Below are positions 11,230 to 29,173 of a stretch of 32,000 nucleotides of DNA, piece after piece. Position 1 is the stretch's first letter. Each line of letters opens with the position of its first letter. The notes below the pieces were generated by a model that searched no databases, was not told the origin of the DNA, and saw only the letters and a program-made list of their open reading frames with translations. Position numbers and translations under genes: made by a program. The stretch spans positions 930,001 to 962,000 of the forward strand of contig CP006913.1 in assembly GCA_000503875.1 (NCBI GenBank). The letters run 5' to 3'. The stretch comes from Candidatus Saccharimonadota bacterium. GTDB taxonomy: Bacteria; Patescibacteriota; Gracilibacteria; Absconditabacterales; Absconditicoccaceae.

Positions 11230-11631
11230 TTAGAATGGAACTTCTTCGTCTTCTGGATGTTCAACTAAGTCAACTTCTTCTCCTCCTTCTTCTCTAACTC
11301 CTTTAGGATCCAAGAAGATAAAATTATCAACAATAATTTCTGTAGAGAATCTTTCTACTCCTTCACTATCTTGCCATTTTCTTGTTCTAAGTCTTCATTC
11401 TATATATATTCTTTTCCCTTTATTTAAATATTTTCCCAATACATCAGCACCCTTTCCATAAGCAACACATCTATGATATTCCGCGTCTTCCAAAACATTA
11501 CCATCTTTATTTTTAAATTTCCTGTTGGTTGCTACAGTAAAATTCACAACAGGTGTTCAGCTACTCTCTATGGTTTTAACCTGCAAGTTATTGGTAGCTC
11601 TTCAAATAATCATCACCTTGTTCAAATCCAT
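11230..11631 (-). CDS. ssb: single-stranded DNA-binding protein
   Basis: ATG 11631-11629, TAA 11232-11230. OB-fold N-terminus NKVMIIGRATNNLQ...EYHRCVAYGK...IEGRLRTRKW and an acidic tail ending EDEEVPF, the SSB C-terminal tip. Confidence 0.9.
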
Positions 11632-11908: not shown

Positions 11909-13603
11909 TTATTTTTTGTTTTTGCTTTGGTCTAAAAAATCGGTACCATGGACAGCCGATAACACCGCATCGTATAAAGTCTTTCAGGCGGTTCGAAATC
12001 CATTTTCTTTGGTATATAGTAACTTCTCCCCAAAGAGAAGGCTAACCAAAGTCGATTTCAACTCAGTATTCGATAATTCCCAAACCGTTTTGGGTCACAT
12101 ATAAATCTTTTTTGCTTGAACCAATAAATTTTCTAGCTCCTCTTCAGACAGTTTTGAGTCTTTTTCGATCTCATTTTGGAGCTTTTCTTTTTCCAAACGA
12201 ACCAATTCCCATTCTCCTTCAAGTTCTTCTACGAGATGGATATTCTGAGTAGTAAGCATTGTCGTACGGATTTTTTTCATTCTTTCTGATACCTCATCAA
12301 GTGCTCTTTGCCTGTCTTGTTTGATCAATGCCTCATATTCATTTCTGTACTTCCATATTTCCTTGATAGTCTCTTCTATCAAATTTCGAACATCTTCATT
12401 AACTGCCACTTTATCCAGTAGTTGATCAAATTGTTCATTCATAAGGTCACGCTTAACTTGAAATCTGTGTGTATCTTTTTTGTTACCACATCCGTAATAA
12501 GCATATTTTTGACTGCGTCCTTTCGCTCGATATCCTGTTAGTTTCACTTCACAATGTCCGCAATATACAAAATCTTTCAATGGGAAATCAGGATTATTTT
12601 TTTGATAAATCTTCCCAATTAATGGATTCAGTTTCATTTTCTTGAGAATTTTCTCTACTGTTTCCATTGTAATCAATGGTTTATGTTTTGCAGGGATAAG
12701 TTCATTAATATCCCATTGAGGATAATAAATAAATCCTGCCATAAAAAAGAGTCTGTTTTCTGTAAACAGATTTTCTACGATAGTTTTGTATAATTCTCCT
12801 CTAGTATTATTCACACTATTGCTTTGTAATCATCTGTCTTTCATGAATCTGAAGACTGCTGATTCGCTTGCTAACATTCCATTGGCATACATTTCCAAGG
12901 CTTCTGAGATGATTGGTCATTTGATAGGATTGACAACTAGGATACTATTTTTGCCTTCTTTGACTCTTGTGTATCCAATTGGCGGTGTACCAAATGGTCG
13001 ATATCATTCTAGCATTCTTGATCTCATTCCATTTTTTGTTTTACATCTTGTGTTCCTTCTCTCAAAAGCTGAAAAAGCATAGAGAATATTCTCCTGGAGC
13101 ATTCCTGCACTGGAATTATAATCCGTAGGATAAAGAACATATACAATTTCTGATCAAGATTGTCTAATTTTACTTGTCATCATTAAAGTCTCTGCCATAT
13201 CATCATTTCTGGAGATTCTTGAATTATCTACACAGACAAAATGAGTAATAAAAGGCACTCATGTCCTTTCATCCTTAAGGGTTTCCAAAGGAAGCGGATC
13301 ACTAGCTTTCCTTTTCTTGTTTTGTTTAGCTCGCTTTTCAAATCTTTTTGTTTGTTTTCATAGGATATCGAGAACTTCATCGAATCCATCTCTTTCAAAA
13401 GATCATCAAGAAACTCATCAGTCCTTGATAATTTTGGCGATCTGAACATTGTTTTTTTCGCATCGATCTTTACACATCGATTCCTGTGTTTCAATACCGA
13501 ACTGTTCATTTTGTTGTTTTTTGGAAGATACACGGCAGTAGACTAACGCTACTTTCTTTGAATCATCCTTGCTCTTGTTTTCAAGAAGATTTTTTTTATA
13601 CAT
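11909..13603 (-). CDS. large serine recombinase (phage integrase)
   Basis: ATG 13603-13601. Resolvase domain VALVYCRVSSKKQ and DGGVSGGSFERDGF (four TGA = Gly, 13403-13420). Then a recombinase domain, zinc ribbon CGHC...YYGCG and a C-terminal coiled coil. The track stop 12095-12097 is TGA; the first real stop is TAA 11911-11909, adding 62 codons. Confidence 0.85.
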
Positions 13604-14118: not shown

Positions 14119-14550
14119 ATGAATCAAAAAAGATGAAGGAAACCAGTCACTGAGTATAAAACTCACTATAAAATGTATAAAGATGCATTTCAACATCTCC
14201 TTAGATATATCCATGAAAAGAATCTCCAATCACTGTATACCAAATGAAAGATCTCCTTTGGTATCCAAGAAAGCGATGTCGTCCTCTCCTATATTTTCCA
14301 AAACATAAAGATCGAATCAACGATCAAGATTGATATGTCTGACCGTAGACATATTGATGAGCTCAATAAAGCGATCCAAGATTTCTTTATCGATACTCGG
14401 TATATGTATGAATGGGACTGAACCCCTACCAAAAATCAGGACTTAGCTAGAATCCATTGAATTTCTCCTCAGGCGATGAAGGTCGCATTACAAAATATCA
14501 AAGACAAAATCCTCGAAGATTATGGCGAGCAACTTTCGTATCGTTCGTAA
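14119..14550 (+). CDS. putative DNA-binding protein with a C-terminal helix-turn-helix
   Basis: ATG 14119, TAA 14548-14550, with four in-frame TGA. The C-terminal QDLARIHGISPQAMKVALQNIKDKI looks like an HTH (sigma-70 region 4/LuxR-like). No family assignment was possible by eye. Confidence 0.5.
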
Positions 14551-14581
14551 TTTTTTCTTTTACTTTTTTTTCAATCTTCTC

Positions 14582-15805
14582 ATGCAATTACAAATCCAGT
14601 TATTCCCAATCGACAAGATTATCCCATATGAGTTCAACAACAAAATCCATCCTGAAGAGCAGACCAATAAAATAGCAAACTCAATCCAAGAATGTGGATT
14701 CAGAGCTCCTATTCTTATTGATGAGAATAATATCATCTTGGCAGGTCATGGTAGATTACTCTGAGCTCAGAAACTTTGATTGACTGAAGTTCCTGTGATC
14801 CAATACACCGATCTGAATGAACTCCAGAAAAAGAAATACAGAATCCTTGATAACAAATTATCTGATCTCGCTGAACGAGATATCGAAAACTTAAAGATCG
14901 AACTCGAGGCTATCGATGATCCTGATTTGAATCTCCTTTTTGATGATCTTAATCTATGATTGGATGATGAACTCGATGTCGATGAAGACAAAGAAGATGA
15001 AGCTCCTGAAGTTTCTGAGAAAATTTGGGTGGAGAAAGGAGATATTTTTCAACTCTGAGAACATAGACTTTTGTGTGGCGATGCTACCAAGCTTGATGAA
15101 GTCCAAAAACTAATGGATGGAGAGCTTTGCGATCTTGTGATAACTGACCCTCCTTACAATGTAAACTATGAAGGAAGTAATGGTCTTAAAATTCAAAATG
15201 ATAATATGGGAGATTCAGATTTCTATCAGTTCCTGTATGATGTATATACCAATCTTTGTATGGTACAAAAAGACGGTGGATCAATCTATGTGTTCCATGC
15301 TGATACTGAATGAGAGAATTTCAGAAAAGCGATGGTAAATGCTGGATACAAACTGTCTCAATGTTTGGTGCGAGTGAAAAATGCACTGGTAATGGGAAGA
15401 CAAGATTATCATCGAAAGCATGAACCTATCTTATATGGTTGGAAAAAAACATGATCTCACAATTGGTATTCAGATAGAAGTCAGACGACTGTTTGGAATT
15501 TTGATAAGCCTTTGAAAAACGATGTTCATCCTACGATGAAGCCAATTGATATTTTAGTCTATCCAATAAATAATAGTTGTAAAAAATGAGAACTGGTCGT
15601 TGATTTGTTTTGATGATCAGGAAGTACTATGATTGCTTGTGAGAAGACTTTTAGAAGATGTAATATGATGGAATTGGATGAGAGATATGTGCAAGTAATC
15701 ATTCAAAGATATTTTGAATACACAAAATGACAGAAACCTATCAAGTGCCTTTCTAGGAAATTAGATGTAAAGAAATTTTTATCAGAAACTCCAGATAAAA
15801 AATAA
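14582..15805 (+). CDS. ParB-like N-terminal domain fused to a beta-class DNA methyltransferase (DPPY, N6-adenine type likely)
   Basis: ATG 14582 (an alternative in-frame ATG lies at 14522), TAA 15803-15805. ParB-N pattern [18 protein letters not shown]...ILAGHGRL. MTase motif IV ITDPPYN lies upstream of motif I DLFGGSGST (GG = TGA TGA 15611-15616), plus VHPTMKP. Confidence 0.9.
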
Positions 15806-16284
15806 TGAGATATAATTGGTCAGAGCTTAGGAATGAATTTATGCAGGGAGATTATCTCTCAATTTTTGATTTCTACAAACAGCACCAAAACCGCACGAAA
15901 ACCGCACCTAAAAAAGATATGAATGGGCAACGAAAAAAGATGACAAAAGGTCGAGCTGAAGAAAAAGATCACATGAAAAAGCAAGTTGATAACCGAATAA
16001 CTGAACACAAAAACAGTATTGAAGATGAATTAAAAGCCAAGATGTCAGAAGAATTGCATGTTGATATCCAGGAGCTTATCAAACAAAAGAAAGCACTCTT
16101 TATTTTGATTAATAAAAAGATTGTTCATCTAGCCAAAAACAGTCCCGAAAATATCACTGCCAGGGATATTAACATTTTACTTGATATGGTAAAAAGGGAA
16201 CTTGGAGAACCGACTAATCTTAGCAAAAATCATAATATTGAAGAGAAATCCTTTATCCCTTCAGAAGATGAATTAGATGACTAA
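15805..16284 (+). CDS. terS: putative terminase small subunit
   Basis: Intact 159-aa ORF with no TGA. Its ATG overlaps the upstream TAA (TAATG) and its end overlaps the terL start by 8 nt. Its position directly upstream of terL is the main argument. Confidence 0.45.
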   Translation: MRYNWSELRNEFMQGDYLSIFDFYKQHQNRTKTAPKKDMNGQRKKMTKGRAEEKDHMKKQVDNRITEHKNSIEDELKAKMSEELHVDIQELIKQKKALFILINKKIVHLAKNSPENITARDINILLDMVKRELGEPTNLSKNHNIEEKSFIPSEDELDD

Positions 16285-17797
16285 CGAAGGGAATAAAAGA
16301 CCAACAAAACTGGCATCTAAATCCTGGAGATTATCTCATCTATACAAAATTGTTGATAAAAATTCTCAAACTATCACTTTCAAAAGAAATAATGCACAAG
16401 AAAAGCTTAATGCCTACATCAAAGAACTCAAAGAAAAAAACTGATTTGTGAGATTGATTATCTTGAAAGCAAGACAACTTTGAGTGACCACGGATAGATT
16501 GGTTGATGGTCTTGATGAATGTCTCTTAAAAAAGAATCAGAACATAGTTATCACTGCCCACAATAGAGAAAAGCAAAAAGAAATCTTCCAAAAAGTGAAA
16601 TACTCATACCAACAAACTCCTGACGGTCTTAGAACAGAAAAAGGTGTCCGATATAAGCCAAAACCAAAGTATGATAATGTGAATGAATTATATTTTCCTA
16701 CCAACCACTCTAAGATTCAAGTTTCCTTGGATAGTAGATCATGAACACCTACCAAACTTCATATCACGGAGCTTGCATTTAGAAACGATGCCAGGGAGAT
16801 GATGGCTGGTACTTTACCATCAATGCCAAAGACTGCTGACATCATTATTGAAACCACAGCCAATTGAGTAGGTAACTACTTTTATGAGATGTGGAATAAA
16901 TATTATGGAAGAGATGATGGAGAATTCAAAACGATCTTTATTGGTCGATGGTTTGCAGATGAATATGCAAGCGAGATAGAAGAAGGAGAAATGATTGTCC
17001 TTCCGATTGAACTCAAACATCTCGAACAACTCCCCATTACTGAATGACAAAAAAAATGGTATCTGCAACAATACGATCTTTTGTGAAGAGATGTTTTCCA
17101 AGAGTATCCAAGCACACCTGAGGAGGCTTTCTTGACTACTGGAGATACCGTTTTCAATATTCAGATTATCAAGAACCTAGAGAAACTAAAGTATGTCGAA
17201 GATATGAAATTTCCGAAACTCAGAATCTATGCAAAACCTGGAGAAAAATGTCTGTTTGGTATCGATACTGCTGAGGGTTGAAAGGATGGAGATAGCTCTT
17301 CTATCTCAGTCAGGGATACAGATATGAAACTCCTGGCTTTCTTTTACTGAACGATACCACCTGATGAACTGTGTGTGGTTGTTGATAGGCTTGTTGAATT
17401 ATGATACAAAGGGATCATTGGAGTTGAAAGGAATAATACCTGATTAACCACTATCACCAAAGCCAAGGAATATCCATGGTACGATATGCTCTATACAGAG
17501 AGAACTATTGATAAGATCACAAACCAACCGACAAGAAAATTCTGACGACAAACGAATACAAAAACAAGACCACTCATGATCAACGAATATGAAGAAGCGA
17601 TCAGAAGATGATTTATTGATCAGGTGGATGAGAGATTAAGAACGGAGATGTATTCGTTTATTTACAATGAGAAAAACAAACCAGAAGCACAGGAAGGAAC
17701 TCACGATGATGCGATCATCTCAGATGCTATCTGTTATCAAATGAGAAAGGAACTAGCATACGATATGAGCTGGGCATTAGAAACAACACAAAACTAA
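16277..17797 (+). CDS. terL: terminase large subunit
   Basis: ATG 16277, TAA 17795-17797. Walker A-like ILKARQLGVTT (Gly = TGA), IHITELAF. Nuclease-domain acidic motifs FGIDTAEGGKDGDSSS and THDDAIISDA. The whole frame was translated without TAA/TAG. Confidence 0.9.
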
Positions 17798-17835
17798 ATC
17801 TTGAAAAACAAAAAGGAAATCATATACATCATAGT

Positions 17836-18246
17836 ATGATGAAATATGTAAAAAACCTATTCTTAATTATAATTACAGGGATATATCTCATTCATAGCTC
17901 TTTTGCTTTAGGACTATGATTTTTGGGACATCATGAAAAAAATGTTGACCAAAATAATATAAAGACGACTCAAACTTGTTGATCTGAAAGTGAAAGTTGT
18001 TGTTCTACTACCAATAGCTGTATAAACCTTTGTGTATCAGAAGAATATCAAACTTATTCAACATCAAATTTAAAACTCCACGATCATAATGAACAATGTG
18101 ATGATAGTTCACTAAAATATCTTTCTTCATTTACATATAGATTAGAGGCACTTTATATAGTTTCTCTCAAGACTTCATTTTCACCCAAAAACATCTTTGC
18201 ATTTGATGCAACAGATCTCGTCTGAATTATTAAACTCACAATATAG
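17836..18246 (+). CDS. secreted Cys/His-rich small protein (possible metal-binding)
   Basis: ATG 17836, TAG 18244-18246. Signal/TM N-terminus MMKYVKNLFLIIITGIYLIHSSFA, then GHHEK, the cluster CGSESESCCSTTNSCINLC and HDHNEQC. Confidence 0.5.
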
Positions 18247-18268
18247 GATATAAATAACAACTTCGAAA

Positions 18269-18293
18269 AGCATATTTAGTATGCTCCTTTTTT
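18269..18293 (+). terminator. weak hairpin plus T-run after the Cys-rich gene
   Basis: Stem agcata (18269-18274) / tatgct (18280-18285), 5-nt loop, then cc + T6. The stem is short and AT-rich. Confidence 0.4.
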
Positions 18294-18313
18294 AGTTTTT
18301 ATTTTTATCTACA

Positions 18314-19246
18314 ATGAAACAAATGACACAAATGAACCCAAAACAACATATGCAACAAATTCTTATTATACTATGAGTAGCGATAATTATCGTAATAGGA
18401 TTTAGTTTCTTTCAAACAAACAGAGTTATTTCTTGGTTAGAAAATAATGAAGCTCAAAAAGTTTGATGACAAGAAAATTACGAAACTATTCAAAAAATAT
18501 ATTGAAGCGACACATTCAAGAGCCAACAAAAAGCATCATTAGGACAAGCATTAGGTCAAATGCAATGAAATACTAACGGGAATGATAATGCAAATACTAA
18601 ACAGACTCAACAAGAACAACCAAAACCTACAAACATAACTAAATCTGATAAACCAGCAGTAGATTTATTCATTATGTCATATTGTCCGTATTGACTACAA
18701 GCTCAAAAAGGAATCCTAGATGTAATGAAAAAAATGTGAAATGTTGCCGATATAAAGATTAAATTTGTGCATTATCTTATGCATGGAAAAAAAGAAGCTG
18801 AGGAAAATGTAAGACAATATTGTATACAAGATCAACAAAAAGATAAATATACAAAATATCTTGAATGTTTTTTGAAAGAAGAATGAAAATCTGAAAGCTG
18901 TTTAAGTGAAGTTTGAATTGATACATCAAAGTTGAATTCGTGTTACACTGATACATTTAAAAAATATAATATTGAAGAATTATTGGCTTCATGAGGACAA
19001 AATCCATCATTTCCTGTAAATGCTGATGAAAGTAAATCTTTTGGAGTACAATGATCTCCAACATTAGTTATCAATTGAGCTATTGTAAATGCTTGAAGAA
19101 GTGCGAATGATTACAAAGAAGCTATTTGTAATGCATTTAATGACAAGCCAGCTATTTGTAACGAAGATTTCGTAAAAGTTCCTTATGACCCTATGTTCGG
19201 TTTTACAAGTAATGGAAAATGAGTCGCATGATGATGTGGACAATAA
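18314..19246 (+). CDS. membrane-anchored DsbA-like thioredoxin-fold protein (active-site region CPY-TGA)
   Basis: ATG 18314, TAA 19244-19246. N-terminal TM helix and a Q/N-rich linker. FIMSYCPYG (18683-18694) sits at the position of a CxxC motif. The cis-Pro loop GVQGSPTLVINGAIV is typical of DsbA/Trx folds. The C-terminus is GKGVAGGCGQ. Confidence 0.7.
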
Positions 19247-19277
19247 TTTTTATTTGGTAATACCATACAGAAAATAT

Positions 19278-20441
19278 ATGAAAAAAATTATTGCCCTTTG
19301 TGGCTTACTTTTTGTGTTTTTTTATAGTTTAACATTTGCAGAAGAATATACTTTTTTCTATGGAAATTGATGTCCTCATTGTGCAAATGTTGAGAATTTT
19401 TTCAACGAAGAAAAAATTGAAAAAAAGTTTAATATAACATCTAAAGAAATCTATTTTAATAGGGACAATCTAAAAGATCTCAACTATTACTTAGAGAAGA
19501 TGAACCTTCCATCTGAAAAGATGGGTATCCCTTTTCTCGTCATTACTAGTTGATCAGATACTTCTTACCTCAATGGTGATGAACCTATTATTGATTTCTT
19601 TACGAAAAAGCTCAATCAAAATACTACTTCATGAACATGAGAAAATGTCGCCTCAACTTGTGCATTAACATCAGGTAGTGATTCTTCAACTTGTTCATGA
19701 TCTTCTACCACAAACTGAATAAATCCTCCATGAGGAGTCAAAGATTGATTCAAAAACAGACTTTCTTTCTTTGCTATTATGCTTCCTGCGGCGATCTCGG
19801 ATAGTATCAATCCCTGTGCTTTCGCAGTAATGTTTCTCTTATTGTCAGCAATATTATCAAAGCATAAAAGTAGAAAGAAGGCACTCCTTGCAGGATTTAT
19901 GTTTGCATTGGCGGTATTTATTAGTTATCTAGCAATGGGAATATGATTATTTTCTGCATTGGCATGATCTGGTAATACATTCATTCTCAAATTAGTAGTC
20001 TGAATCTTATGAATTCTTGTTTGACTTGCTAATATCAAAGATTACTTTTGGTATGGGAAATTGTTTGTGATGGAAGTTCCATTCTCACGAAGACCCAAAA
20101 TGGCAGATCTAATAGATAAGGTCTCTTCTCCACGATGAGCATTTGCTGTAGGAATTCTCGTAAGTTTATTCTTACTGCCATGTTCTTCATGACCTTACTT
20201 TACTATCTTAGGATATCTAAGTTCTGAAAGCAAAACACTAACTAATTGGTGATATCTCTACCTTGTTATATACAATCTAATTTTTGTATTACCTATGGTA
20301 ATTATTGCTATATTGGTTGGATTTGGATATAGCACAGTTGATAAATTAGCCAAAGTTAAACATCAGAATACAAAACTTATCCACTTAATCGTTGGACTGC
20401 TTATGCTTGGCTTAGGTATCTATGTACTAGTAACGATTTAA
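19278..20441 (+). CDS. fusion of an exported thioredoxin-like domain (CPHC) with a CcdA/DsbD-type transmembrane thiol-disulfide electron-transfer domain
   Basis: ATG 19278, TAA 20439-20441. Signal peptide, then FFYGNGCPHC (19368-19382). A Ser/Thr/Cys linker, then multiple TM helices with the two signature Cys motifs SINPCAF and LLPCSSGPY. Fully translated without TAA/TAG. Confidence 0.85.
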
Positions 20442-20460
20442 TTTATTTTGTGAAATTATC

Positions 20461-22410
20461 ATGGCAACATTCAAAGAATTACGATGAATACAAAAATTTC
20501 GTATGATCATAATATGACTATTGTGTATTCTGCCTTTAGAGATACTCTCTCTATATGGACAAAGGTTTTTAGGTATTTGAGAACGAATACTGTTTCTTAT
20601 TATCTGAATAATCTTTTGAAAAGAGATTTTATTAAAGGGAGTAAAGTCATTATTTCGTTTGAAATTCAGTGATATAAATCTTTTAATGATCATAGCGATT
20701 GGAGGTGCAAGTTATCTTGGTGAGCTTCCTGAAGCTATGATTATCATAGTACTTTTTGCTTTGGGAGAAATGTTGGAAGATTATTGAATTATGAAAAGCA
20801 AACAAGCACTAGAAAACCTTACAAACACTATGCCAAAGATAGGTTTTATAAAAGATATCTGAGAGGTTGCCATAGATAAGATCACGATTGGAAGTATCCT
20901 CATTGTCAAATCATGAGAGCAGATACCCGTAGATTGAAAAATTATTTTTGGTGATGCTTTGGTTGATGAAACAACTATAACCTGAGAACCTTTACCTAAA
21001 TCAAAAACAATAAGCGAAGCTGTCTTTTCGTGAACTATGAATATAAGTTGATATTTAGAAATAGAAACAACAAAGAAATGAGAAGATAGCACATTAGCAA
21101 AAATAATAAATATTACTTACAATTCTTCACAAAAGAAAGCTAACTATCAAAGATTTATACAGAAATTTGCACACTATTATACTCCATCAGTGATGGTTTT
21201 AGCTTTGCTATTAGTTGTCATACCAGTGGTCTTTCTCTGATGAGATTTTAATCACTGGTTTTGACAAGCTATTACACTTCTGATTATTGCTTGTCCTTGT
21301 GCTCTAGTTCTTTCTACTCCTGTAGCGGTTTTCTCTGCAATAGGAAATGCAACATCCCATGGCATTGTCATCAAATGAGCAAAATATCTGGAAGAAATAG
21401 GAAAAATAAAAGCAATCGCTATGGATAAAACCAGAACTCTTACAAAAGGAGAACCACAAATATCAGATATTATCTCACTTGATTGAGATGATGAGAATAC
21501 CTTCCTTGCATGTATAGGTGGTATGGAACAATACTCGGAACACCCCATCGCTCGTTGTGTTGTACAAGAGGCACAAAAAAGATGAATAGAATTACATAAA
21601 CATAAAGATTTTGTGTCAGTCTGAGGAAAAGGAATAAAATCTGAATGTTTAATTTGTAAGGACACCCATCGTTGTTTGGGAAGTGCTAAATTTGTCTGAG
21701 AAGAACATAATATACCAGAACAGATAAAGAAAAAAATCTATGCTTTAGAAGAAGAAGGGAAGACTATTATCCTTGTCAGTAGCCATCAAAAAGTCATCTG
21801 AATAATAGGAATCATAGATACTATAAGACAAGAAAGCAAAGATACTGTAAATGAACTAAGAAAGATGAGTATTGAAGTAGTTATGCTAACATGAGATCAT
21901 CAAAAAGCTGGAGAAATTATTGCCAAAGAAGTAGGAATAACGAATATCAAAGGCTGATTATTACCTGATCAAAAAGCTGAAGAAATAGAGAAATTAGTCA
22001 AAGAATATGGTAGTGTTGCTATGCTTTGAGATGGGGTAAACGATGCACCAGCTTTGGTATTGTCATCCGTAGGTATTGCTATGGGTGCAGTGTGATCTGA
22101 TATGGCTATAGAAAATGCAGATATAGCTCTTATGAATGATAAGATTTGACTGATACCTTATCTTATTCGCCTAAGTAGAAACTGTCATAATATTATTAAA
22201 TTCAATACAGCTCTCGCAATAGGAGTCAAAGCATGTGTGCTATGATTAGCAGTTTTTGGTATTAGTAATCTAAGTCTAGCGATTGTGAGTGATGTTTGAG
22301 TTACAATCTTTGTTGTTATCAATAGTCTAAGATTATTCTGAGTGAAAAATAAGTCTTTAAAGTTTGAACATAAAAGCAAAAAAGATGATTGTTGTGAGGC
22401 TTGTCATTAG
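20461..22410 (+). CDS. P1B-type heavy-metal-translocating ATPase (CPC type; Cu or Zn/Cd specificity unresolved)
   Basis: ATG 20461, TAG 22408-22410. [18 protein letters not shown] (21292-21300), the phosphorylation site as DKTRTLT (21424-21444), [24 protein letters not shown]. There is no N-terminal HMA domain. The C-terminal tail is [10 protein letters not shown]. Confidence 0.9.
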
Positions 22411-22456
22411 ATAAATATTCTGATTCAATAGATTGATAATATTTGAAATAATTTAT

Positions 22457-22488
22457 ACACAGTGGTAGTTTTATCACTGTGTTTTTTT
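22457..22488 (+). terminator. rho-independent terminator closing the cargo block, ending 1 nt before the portal ATG
   Basis: Stem acacagtg (22457-22464) / cactgtgt (22475-22482), 10-nt loop, T6 at 22483-22488. Confidence 0.65.
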
Positions 22489-22489
22489 C

Positions 22490-23968
22490 ATGCAACAACA
22501 AATATATCTTGATAATATCATCACAAAAGAAGTCAGCACCAGAGGTAAATTCAAGAAGATTTACGAAAATGATGCCAGCCATTTTGTGTTGGGAACTTTC
22601 AAAGCTAATGTCTTTAATATCAAAACCTATCTCAGTAACCACAAAAACAAAGATGAGTATTTGTATTTGAATGTGAACCTCCTTTCTTTGATGGCAAATA
22701 CTACTGCTGATTATATCATTGGTGATGGAATAGAAATCGATATTGATAACGAACAAGCCAAAGCAAAACGAGATGAGATAAGTGAAGCCAACGGATTTGA
22801 TGAGTTGCTTTACAACATCGCTTTGAATACTTGAATCTATGGCTATGCAGTTTTAAGATCAAGAAAAGATGACAAGGACAATATTGTAATTGAAGAGATA
22901 CCTTACGATTATTACTTTCCACAAATTGAATGATTATTCTTGGGAGAAGACCCCAACAAAATCTATCTCATCAGCAAGATCAACGAAACTTTATGAAGTT
23001 CTATCCAACAAAAAGCAAAAATACAATCCTACACCAAACAAGAAAACTGAAACTGGTTGATTGAATATGGTTTGTATTCAGTCGCTCTTGATGGTACTCA
23101 GTACAGTTTAGAAAAAGAACTCGCACCTGCTGAGACATTAGACTTCTTGAACATCTATCGTTTTGATAACAGGAAGGTCAGTTGAAAGTATCTAGGCAAC
23201 AATGACTACACAGATATTCTTGATCTTCTAGAGGAAGTGAACGACAGGTTTACCCAAATATCACTCCAGTTTATCAAACATCTCAATAGTAAAATTTCAC
23301 TTCCTGAATGAGTATCTGCACTCCTTCAAAACAAAGATAAATCAATCCACAACTTAGAAGTCTTTGTGCATAGACAAGGAGAGCAACCAGCTCAGTATAT
23401 CGAAAACCATAATTCATTGATCCCTGAAGCACAAACCTACATCGATAAGATACTCAAACTTATCGGAGCGATAACTCAAATCCCTATCTCTTTCTTTGGG
23501 TTTGAAGAATCCTGAGGAGCCGAGAAGGTAGAAGCACTCAGGATCAGGCTCACAAGATTTCTCAAGAAGATACAAAGAAAGCAAAGAATGATGGAACTGA
23601 CTTTGAAAAAGCTGATCAAAGAAACTCTAGCTTTTGCAGGAGTTCAAGGAGAGTTTTCAATTGATGTTAAATTCTCAGATGCGATGTTGAAAGACCTGCA
23701 ACAAAACACTCAGATGTATATTGATTTGTATAATAACAAACTTGTATCTCAAGAAACAGCAATCGCCAATATCTTTTCTTGGGAAAAAGACATGGTACAA
23801 AAAGAACTCGCTATCATCAAAACAGAACAAGAAGAGCAACAAAAAAAGCAGATAGAATTGAATAAATCTTTACCAACTAACAAACCAAATAATGGCAGTA
23901 ATTGATCCAAACAAGACAAACCAGGAACTAAGGGAAGTGCTGATTCTTCTTTTACTAACAAACAATAA
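22490..23968 (+). CDS. portal protein (SPP1 gp6-like by size, position and pattern)
   Basis: ATG 22490, TAA 23966-23968. It joins track ORFs 22490..22834 and 23588..23905. About 492 aa, upstream of scaffold and capsid. The internal stretch was fully translated without TAA/TAG. Confidence 0.8.
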
Positions 23969-28402: not shown

Positions 28403-29173
28403 ATGACACAAACAACATGAATCATCAATGATCAGAGGTTGCTGGCTGGTGCTGGAGAATTCTACTACTGATCTTCTTTATCATCTCTAGTAAGGCTTGG
28501 TGCTTATAGAGATGCGGTTATTGAATCCAAAAGAGAAAGTTCCGAGCTTGTCTTTGATAACGACAAGATCAACAAATTCAAAAAGGGTTCTGAGTTCTCT
28601 TTCAAATTCAAACTTTGTGAAATCGATCCTGATACTTTAGCAAGTCTCAATGAAGGTTGGATCACAAAAACTTCTATCCCTGGAACACTTGTTTCTGGAG
28701 CAACTCAAGTGATCGCATCAAATACGATCCAGTTTCTATCACTCGTTGAACTCGAACATCAAAACTACGATAATGGAGCGATCAGTATTACTTCAATCGT
28801 TGGTTCTGTAGATGGGACAATCTCTGCTTCAGATTATTTTCAAGTAGTCTGACCTGCTGGTAGAAGAAACATCTACTTCAAATCAGGTGGATCAGTAACA
28901 ACTCTCAATCAAACTTTCACGATTACTTACAATTATACTCCTGCACAAAGTAGAAAATTTACCTTTGCAGACACAGGAATTGCATCTAGATTCTATGCAA
29001 GATTTATTCACGAGAGACCTGATGGTAAACAAATCACTATCGATCTTAAAGATGTCCAAAACTTGACTTGATTAACGATAGACTTTGTTGGTAATAGCGA
29101 GGACGATGTAGCTACCTGTGATATAGAACTCAATGGTAAAGTTACATCTCAAGGATTTGTTTATGAAGTATAG
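28403..29173 (+). CDS. major tail protein
   Basis: ATG 28403, TAG 29171-29173. About 256 aa, immediately upstream of the chaperone pair and tape measure. It is absent from the standard-code track because of 5 in-frame TGA codons. Confidence 0.6.

Follow-up and report, generated by a model that had tools for sequence, protein, structure and literature searches.

A thiol-redox and heavy-metal ATPase cassette at the terL–portal junction of a code-25 prophage in the SR1 bacterium RAAC1_SR1_1

The stretch of DNA analysed here (32,000 nucleotides; positions 930,001 to 962,000 of the forward strand of contig CP006913.1, assembly GCA_000503875.1; referred to as the window and numbered from its first letter) contains an integrated temperate phage that uses genetic code 25, in the closed chromosome (1,177,760 bp) of candidate division SR1 bacterium RAAC1_SR1_1 (Absconditabacteria). 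Four intact genes of the same strand, designated A–D, are located between the phage genes for the large terminase subunit (terL) and the portal. They encode a small Cys/His-rich protein, a membrane-anchored protein of the DsbA/GILT fold, a thioredoxin–CcdA (Trx–CcdA) fusion and a P1B-type heavy-metal ATPase. The ∼4.63 kb module that they form (17801–22428) is most likely horizontally acquired cargo at a cargo hotspot, which extends from the terL stop codon to an AATAGAYTGAT motif plus hairpin. With somewhat better than even confidence, the cassette is read as moron-type cargo that would give the lysogen tolerance of thiophilic metals together with protection of its envelope thiols. The features used in the analysis were as follows.

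11909–13603, − strand: large serine recombinase, integrase that marks the left prophage end (Pfam Resolvase and Zn_ribbon_recom)
16277–17797, + strand: terL, last phage gene 5′ of the cargo (phrog_2, phrog_24361, phrog_5989)
17801–17835, + strand: conserved leader, left end of the module (aligned in the window, L003, L014 and L019)
17836–18246, + strand: gene A, Cys/His-rich small protein of 136 residues (AHB41648.1; alignment)
18265–18294, + strand: hairpin and T-run after gene A, terminator or attenuator of the cassette (fold −15.8 kcal/mol, z = −6.6 for the A–B intergenic region)
18314–19246, + strand: gene B, membrane-anchored DsbA/GILT-fold protein with monothiol CPYG (AHB41649.1; AlphaFold2, Foldseek)
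19278–20441, + strand: gene C, Trx–CcdA fusion (AHB41650.1; Pfam, phrog_33510, hydropathy)
20461–22410, + strand: gene D, heavy-metal P-type ATPase of the P1B-2 type, predicted for Zn/Cd/Pb (AHB41651.1; NCBIfam, Pfam, PDB)
22427–22437, + strand: junction motif AATAGATTGAT, phage backbone sequence (alignment of the window, L019, L001 and L017)
22457–22489, + strand: terminator-like hairpin and T-run abutting the portal start codon (terminator scan; D–portal region fold z = −3.1)
22490–23968, + strand: portal, first phage gene 3′ of the cargo (SPP1_portal, 2.8e-17; phrog_533, phrog_64)

The original prediction, which had been made from the letters of the window alone, placed four same-strand genes between terL and portal, and its gene coordinates were correct when the stretch was translated with code 25. 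Open reading frames (ORFs) of at least 100 residues amounted to 55 kb with TGA as a sense codon and to 14 kb under table 11, where the ORFs of the window are short and broken up; recoding of TAG or TAA was rejected, as the ORF length regained was far below that obtained with TGA. Code 25 (TGA = Gly) was assigned because TGA sits on invariant glycines of P-type ATPase motifs in gene D, including TGE and MLTGD, and on the glycine of SYCP[YF]G in gene B, which is family-wide and includes members from standard-code organisms. The same positions ruled out code 4 (TGA = Trp). Selenocysteine at the CPY-TGA site of B was also ruled out, since standard-code homologues have glycine there.

By exact-sequence look-up, genes A–D correspond to AHB41648.1 to AHB41651.1 (P148_SR1C00001G0860–0863) and three of the four (A, B and D) are deposited as 'hypothetical protein'; a complete heavy-metal P-type ATPase of 649 residues is thus found among these records of RAAC1_SR1_1. 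Several metagenome pipelines translate the cassette genes with code 4 or 11, which gives Trp for Gly or truncated products such as a 574-residue version of D. The genome paper on RAAC1_SR1_1 mentions neither prophages nor metal pumps and the cassette is absent from its text (PMC3812714), and a survey of phages in Saccharibacteria, Gracilibacteria and Absconditabacteria does not mention the cassette (PMC10746230).

That the block is an insertion, as had been claimed, was confirmed by comparison with related phages, which were obtained by a TerL-based scan of IMG/VR (L001) and by a metagenome scan (L017/L018 and L019). L001 is syntenic with the window from the recombinase to the tail genes (80% identity for TerL, 76% for the portal and 81% for the capsid protein) and its portal gene follows terL directly, after a gap of 60 nt; L017/L018 show the same synteny and the same direct succession with a gap of 77 nt. 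Compared with L001, L017 and L019 together, the window has amino-acid identities of 80–82% for terL, 74–77% for the portal and 61–64% for the recombinase. The L019 prophage, on a contig of 227 kb, carries a different insert of 2.7 kb at exactly the same terL–portal junction. This insert contains a remote homologue of gene A with 36% identity (the same sequence as P0246), a B-type protein that shares the anchor of gene B and has CPFC in a Thioredoxin_4 domain, and another DsbA-like protein, which has CEAC. The cassette therefore has the presence/absence pattern of a moron, being missing from L001 and L017/L018 and replaced by other cargo in L019. L002 was discarded as an independent second instance: with 100% identity over 18.7 kb, it is the contig from which the window itself was taken. 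At 11482–11487 of L019 the stop of terL overlaps, as TAATG, with a possible upstream ATG for the homologue of gene A, and the two genes could be coupled in translation; an in-frame start of this kind is missing from the window.

The ends of the module were located with blastn. Backbone homology between the window and L001 ends at 17783 and picks up again at 22454, and the homology of the cassette to an element with a Rep_1 replication gene (L003/L004, described below) starts at 17801 and ends at 22428, which delimits the module to within ∼20 nt on each side. The leader at the left end (17801–17835) contains −35/−10-like hexamers (TTGAAA and TATACA, separated by 16 nt) and is putatively promoter-like; these hexamers were not called by a consensus promoter scan, and no strong promoter was found in the cassette. 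At the right end, the junction motif AATAGATTGAT (22427–22437) has a single match in the window, compared with 0.14 expected by chance. Common to all four phages is the succession of AATAGAYTGAT, ∼25 nt, a hairpin with a T-run and the portal ATG, and in the relatives cargo always lies immediately 5′ of the AATAGAYTGAT motif.

Of the two hairpin terminators that had been attributed to the block, only one proved to be its own. The hairpin and T-run after gene A (18269–18293 in the prediction) occurs at the same place in L004 (with another stem sequence), L014 and L019, and belongs to the module because it is conserved in four cassette variants, the window included. The second (22457–22488) is a real hairpin, but it is ancestral to the phage and lies outside the cassette, since it is kept both in the cassette-less L001 (5940–5970) and in L019 (14218–14248). 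Its position between terL and portal suggests separate transcription units for the two genes, or regulated read-through. No significant inverted or direct repeats were detected flanking 17798–22489 and no transposase was detected in the block with Pfam, PHROG or NCBIfam; a transposon- or insertion sequence-borne insertion was rejected, as terminal repeats, a target-site duplication and a transposase were all lacking. The outcome named beforehand as refuting the cargo interpretation, a passive insertion with transposon ends and pseudogenized genes, was not what was found: the genes are intact and evolve under purifying selection.

The cassette is mobile between elements. The order A–B–C–D was also found in L003–L006, four contigs from different samples that represent a non-phage integrative element, in which the block lies between the genes for a 604-residue serine recombinase and a Rep_1 rolling-circle replication protein; these copies are the closest relatives of C (81%) and D (88%). 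In L003 (1798–11239 of CAZBWN010000008.1) the element adjoins the ribosomal protein genes rplS, L25 and rpmB and additionally carries a 400-residue unknown protein and an acidic 104-residue repeat protein. Nucleotide homology between the window and the L003/L004 element covers 17801–18534 and 19277–22428; the gap between them corresponds to the catalytic domain of B, which is exchanged between cassette variants. A–B–C occurs in a third context in L014, and gene order is kept across at least three element types. No relatives of A, B, C or D were found among 2.9 million IMG/VR contigs in scans with the D and C sequences and with profiles of A and B.

Composition sets the cassette apart from the phage backbone, as is the case for morons: the GC content of third codon positions is 0.214 in the cassette, like the 0.201 of the host flank and unlike the 0.323 of the backbone, and TGA accounts for 0.52 of the glycine codons in the cassette compared with 0.33 in the backbone. 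All four ORFs are intact with 65 in-frame TGA codons. The ratios of nonsynonymous to synonymous substitution rates (dN/dS) were 0.20–0.25 for A, 0.13 for B, 0.11 for C and 0.065–0.077 for D, compared with 0.10–0.11 for terL and portal. Judged by these ratios, A–D are all under purifying selection and are predicted to be functional, with no pseudogene among them. The dS between the window and L004 cassettes is ∼1.0 and that between the window and L001 for terL and portal is ∼1.6; the lower cassette value fits acquisition of the cassette after the phage lineages had split.

Gene D encodes a P1B ATPase of the P1B-2 class. It scored above the cutoffs of TIGR01525 (549.5 bits, cutoff 346.25) and of TIGR01512, ATPase-IB2_Cd (477.8 bits, cutoff 313.5), but under that of the copper model TIGR01511 (359.7, cutoff 397). 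Pfam identified E1-E2_ATPase and Hydrolase domains, and the best PDB matches were 7qbz and ZntA (4umv), at ∼1e-102 with full-length alignment. The transmembrane (TM) helices carry CPC (TM4), N-x7-K (TM5) and D-x-G-x7-N (TM6), which make up the P1B-2 transmembrane metal-site signature of the Arguello classification. The CopA/ZntA-type exporter originally proposed is probably of the Zn/Cd/Pb type, to judge from these scores and motifs, and is not CopA-like. No HMA domain was detected at its N-terminus with Pfam and the protein starts at the first TM helices; an N-terminal HMA domain is common in P1B-2 ATPases but not obligatory. The C-terminal tail reads DDCCEACH and is kept as CCxxCH in the orthologues.

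The phosphorylation site of D (21421–21435, residues 322–326) reads DKTRT, with an AGA codon, in place of the canonical DKTGT. All three orthologues (window, L004 and L011) share DKTRT, whereas neighbouring ATPases of the same lineage have DKTGT, among them the adjacent CopA-like ATPase in L011. An inactivating mutation or a pseudogene mark was ruled out, given the three orthologues and a dN/dS of ∼0.07; because the catalytic aspartate is also retained, D is presumably a variant rather than a dead enzyme.

In gene B, a single anchor at the N-terminus is followed by a helical linker and a thioredoxin-fold domain. The anchor and linker (18314 to ∼18534) are kept across the cassette variants; the catalytic domain (∼18535–19246) is of the CPYG type in the window and L014 and is a CPFC Thioredoxin_4 domain in L004 and L019. 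Pfam scores were below the gathering thresholds for DSBA (19.8, threshold 25.6) and Thioredoxin_4 (18.8, threshold 23.2) and marginal for GILT (22.5, cutoff 22.4). The AlphaFold2 model of the domain was of high quality (predicted local distance difference test score, pLDDT, ∼97), and Foldseek matched it to S. aureus DsbA (3bci) and mouse GILT (6nwx) with a target TM-score of 0.66 and a probability of 1.00; ScsC (7rgv) was also among the matches. SYCP[YF]G[LT]Q was conserved in all 120 homologues examined (P0121–P0240). The description of B as a membrane-anchored DsbA-like protein therefore holds for the anchor and for the fold, including the inserted helical domain, and fails at the active site, which is CPYG instead of CxxC; lacking the second active-site cysteine, B is not a DsbA-type oxidase despite its fold. 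The B family is large, mostly unannotated and found in candidate phyla radiation (CPR) bacteria, with at least one match labelled 'archaeon', and has eight invariant cysteines, one of which is in a flexible C-terminal CG(Q/A) tail.

Gene C comprises a signal peptide, an exported thioredoxin/glutaredoxin-like domain with CPHC, a Ser/Thr/Gly-rich linker and six TM helices. Two membrane cysteines, in INPC of TM1 and LLPC of TM4 of the six helices predicted from hydropathy, are of the CcdA/DsbD type, and the fused CPHC domain is an extracytoplasmic thioredoxin-fold domain with CxxC, with weak similarity to glutaredoxin (7c10, E = 0.25). The score against Pfam DsbD_TM (PF02683) was 26.8 bits with a cutoff of 27.1, and SfLAP was also matched; many full-length homologues (55–67% identity) bear the name CcdA and have a precomputed hit to PF02683. 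There are more than 1700 full-length homologues in Absconditabacteria and Gracilibacteria, with the JGI name 'CcdA/glutaredoxin'. Chromosomal homologues occur in an ackA…gatB neighbourhood without A, B or D; the upstream genes at these loci (198 and 227 residues) are not homologues of A or B, and no ATPase is adjacent.

One such paralogue is present in the host chromosome itself (AHB41321.1; 8001–9251 of L009) and is 62% identical to the prophage protein; the host is thus not without this capacity. The prophage C is a second, divergent copy, closer to the copies in other mobile elements (81%) than to that of the host (62%). The host paralogue lies in a conserved gatB/clpP neighbourhood.

Gene A is the first cassette gene in all variants. 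It has a single N-terminal hydrophobic segment (anchor or signal, from hydropathy) and contains TCGSESESCCSTTNSCINLC, HH and HDH; the conserved positions are HH, C-x6-CC-x5-C-x3-C, HxH and C. All of the motifs that had been named for the four genes (TCGSESESCCSTTNSCINLC and His pairs in A, CPHC and both PC motifs in C, CPC in D) were found as described. No Pfam, PHROG, NCBIfam or PADLOC hit was obtained for A, and PADLOC gave no defence-system match for B or C either. Approximately seven related clusters were found, four in a search of 5.8 billion and three more remote ones among 1.84 billion representatives; two additional repetitive matches in the HMMER search were false positives. The AlphaFold2 model (pLDDT 46) was too poor for a fold search. 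The family of gene A is tiny, Cys/His-rich and restricted to these cassettes, and its product probably serves B as a metal-binding or redox partner, or as a substrate.

In the preferred reading, D would pump thiophilic divalent metals (Cd, Zn, Pb) out of the cytoplasm, and an extracytoplasmic thiol-redox relay would manage the exposed cysteine thiols of the envelope, which are targets of such metals. Electrons would be passed from cytoplasmic thioredoxin to the CcdA membrane cysteines of C, from these to its fused exported CPHC domain, and from this domain to the membrane-anchored monothiol protein B. A genomic link to metal regulators was observed in L011 (CAYOIP010000002.1, 2520–10903), a code-25 metagenome-assembled genome with an orthologue of D (80%) and a B-family gene (51%). 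The gene order of this island is ArsR-family repressor, B, DsbA (CPAC), VKOR, D, second P1B ATPase (1025 residues, HMA-containing) and CsoR-family repressor; within this lineage it connects D and the B family with metal stress, and it makes a relation to metal tolerance plausible. In P. putida, dsbA and a CadA-type ATPase were the strongest determinants of Cd tolerance (PMC12041740); cells deficient in dsb are sensitive to Cd, a metal that binds free thiols (PMC7089426).

Several observations weigh against this assignment. No metal-sensing regulator was found in the phage cassette or in L003. The main weakness is that A and B, and not the pump, form the core kept across variants: the cargo of L019 has A and DsbA-type genes and no pump, which suggests that this core is about thiol chemistry rather than about metals as such. 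The cassette, which would have to be expressed in the lysogen, is co-oriented with the late operon and has no strong promoter that could be found. As for the proteins, A has neither recognizable homologues nor a reliable model, the missing second cysteine of B excludes classical DsbA oxidase chemistry, D has DKTRT instead of the canonical DKTGT, and the host already owns a Trx–CcdA paralogue.

The arrangement of A and B also bears on an explanation in which A is a disulfide-rich or metal-binding exported effector (bacteriocin-like, or active in exclusion or at the surface), B together with C or a second DsbA protein are its dedicated folding catalysts, and the ATPase is optional. A comes first and is paired with a B-type anchored DsbA-fold protein in the window, L003–L006, L014 and L019; C and D are dispensable in L019; the hairpin and T-run after A would raise its expression over that of the downstream genes, as in precursor-peptide operons; and the bdbA/bdbB genes of SPbeta, which serve sublancin, provide a precedent (PMC6391423, PMC8270828). 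This explanation is nevertheless unlikely. A protein of 136 residues with an N-terminal anchor and without leader-peptide or transporter genes is unlike a known bacteriocin, and no immunity or export gene is present in the cassette; moreover, D shows tight linkage to the block and strong constraint in three of the contexts, and the island of L011 joins B-family and D genes to metal regulators but has no A.

Late-operon expression could instead mean that the cassette acts in the lytic cycle and tunes envelope redox or metal homeostasis for virion yield or lysis. The shared strand and tight spacing with the late operon, the position upstream of the phage's own terL–portal hairpin and the lack of a detectable strong independent promoter would agree with such a role, which is considered improbable in view of the two close relatives without the cassette, the third with other cargo and the same block in the non-phage Rep_1/recombinase element. 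Virions are furthermore assembled in the cytoplasm, whereas the site of action of A, B and C is outside the membrane, and the conserved leader and internal terminator suggest autonomous regulation.

An equally improbable idea is that the invariant core of the cassette, A with the conserved anchor/linker of B, forms an unrecognized system for extracytoplasmic thiol redox in quinone-poor CPR bacteria with code 25 and in their mobile elements. A, a small membrane protein rich in Cys and His that may bind metal, would then be a redox partner of DsbA-fold proteins and would take the role of DsbB or VKOR. L011, the only related island without A, has VKOR beside DsbA; all cassettes with A are without VKOR and DsbB.

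The version put forward originally, a ScsABCD-type copper-stress system joined to a CopA-like Cu exporter, is very unlikely. The parts lists are superficially alike (small Cys protein, DsbA-fold protein, Trx domain and DsbD-like conduit), one of the fold matches of B is ScsC, and the D orthologue in L011 neighbours a CopA-like ATPase and CsoR. D, however, scores over the Cd/Zn cutoff and under that of the Cu subfamily, as described above, and has the K and DxG signatures of P1B-2 pumps, not the YN and MxxSS of Cu pumps; B is without CxxC, C is without the N-terminal periplasmic domains of ScsB, A is unlike ScsA, and no Scs family hit was obtained with Pfam or NCBIfam. That the block is passive hitch-hiking DNA, functionless for phage or host, is highly improbable, since the lack of an own recombinase or regulator in it is outweighed by four ORFs that stay intact despite 65 in-frame TGA codons, dN/dS values (0.065–0.25) like those of terL and portal, and a gene order that is kept across at least three element types.

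The reading as metal-tolerance and thiol-protection cargo was compared with the closest known systems. Phage morons and lysogenic-conversion cassettes include lom and bor of lambda and the morons of HK97 and HK022. The cassette resembles these as extra genes between late genes which are absent in close relatives, deviate in composition from the backbone and presumably benefit the lysogen. It differs in comprising four genes and 4.6 kb rather than a single gene, in using the pre-existing 3′ terminator of the phage, in the alternative cargo at the same site in L019 and in its host, a code-25 CPR bacterium.

The Streptococcus suis phage phi-SsUD.1 (FN997652.1) is likewise a temperate phage with a CPC-type Cd/Zn P1B ATPase, 42% identical to D. 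There, a CadC repressor and an HMA-containing CadA with DKTGT are found among resistance genes near the prophage end, without thiol-redox partners; here, regulator and HMA domain are absent, DKTRT stands in place of DKTGT and the pump has three redox or Cys-rich partners. With the sublancin operon of SPbeta (PMC6391423, PMC8270828), the cassette shares prophage-borne extracytoplasmic thiol–disulfide oxidoreductases beside a small Cys-containing exported product. BdbA and BdbB, however, are DsbA- and DsbB-type oxidases for a glycocin with its own transporter and immunity genes, whereas the cassette has a CcdA-type (reductive) conduit, a monothiol B, no transporter or immunity gene and an attached metal pump.

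Reductive CcdA/DsbD pathways include CcdA with ResA or StoA, and CcdA–Etrx–MsrAB; C resembles them in its six-TM CcdA core, two membrane cysteines and exported CxxC domain. It is 59–67% identical to chromosomal Trx–CcdA proteins in SR1 and Gracilibacteria genomes, and differs from these in its linkage to A, B and D, none of which occurs at the chromosomal loci. The cassette is like the ScsABCD systems of Salmonella and Caulobacter in having a small membrane protein with Cys, a protein of the DsbA fold, a Trx-like domain and a DsbD-like conduit, but has no sequence membership in them, and departs from them in the CxxC-less B, the missing ScsB periplasmic domains of C and the Zn/Cd/Pb-type pump; the likeness to a copper locus claimed at the outset is thus not upheld. 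D has TGE, CPC, N-x7-K and D-x-G-x7-N in common with ZntA/CadA (4umv) and with the 'cadmium translocating P-type ATPase' 7qbz, and is unlike ZntA/CadA in lacking the N-terminal HMA domain, in its C-terminal DDCCEACH and in DKTRT for DKTGT.

The statement that the cassette is not a described phage module needs to be qualified accordingly. Morons and lysogenic conversion, prophage-borne cadA (the cadC–cadA of phi-SsUD.1) and prophage-borne Dsb genes (bdbA/bdbB of SPbeta) are already known, and PHROGs already holds a P-type ATPase family and a DsbD-like family. New are the combination of a pump, a Trx–CcdA fusion, a monothiol protein of the DsbA fold and a novel Cys/His protein, the modular exchange at the terL–portal hotspot and with the Rep_1 element, and the occurrence in a phage of a code-25 CPR bacterium.

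The prophage provides a comparatively well supported case of a temperate CPR phage with host-benefit cargo, in a host with a genome of 1.18 Mb and an alternative code. In this phage lineage, modules for envelope thiol redox are swapped at the terL–portal junction, and exchange of such modules with an integrative element that is not a phage also takes place. Putative functions have been assigned to four genes of a published closed genome; the conserved DKTRT, the widespread CPR family of CPxG DsbA/GILT-fold proteins and the tiny family of gene A are unusual. If tolerance of Cd, Zn or Pb is indeed conferred, ultra-small symbionts in metal-affected aquifers would have phages as vectors of their adaptation to metals.

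The remainder of the window is consistent with its assignment as a prophage. Positions 1 to 11.7 kb contain host housekeeping genes (RarA/MgsA, SecA, HolA and SSB by Pfam). On the + strand, the recombinase is followed by a gene for a ParB–DNA methyltransferase, a possible small terminase subunit, TerL and the four-gene block, and the block by the portal, a scaffold-like protein, the major capsid protein (Pfam SU10_MCP, 1.7e-44), head–tail and tail genes and the tape-measure protein.

Additional genes were noted in L017 (17485–20435), where a major facilitator superfamily transporter gene lies on the opposite strand and a gene of 411 residues with a weak HTH_23 hit splits the homologue of the window tail-region gene at 28403–29173; these suggest more cargo, or insertion-sequence insertion, at other sites in this phage lineage. 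In the window, at 14522–15805 and thus upstream of the terminase genes, a ParB N-terminal domain is fused to an N6/N4 DNA methyltransferase, and this fusion is kept in all related phages with 70–78% identity.

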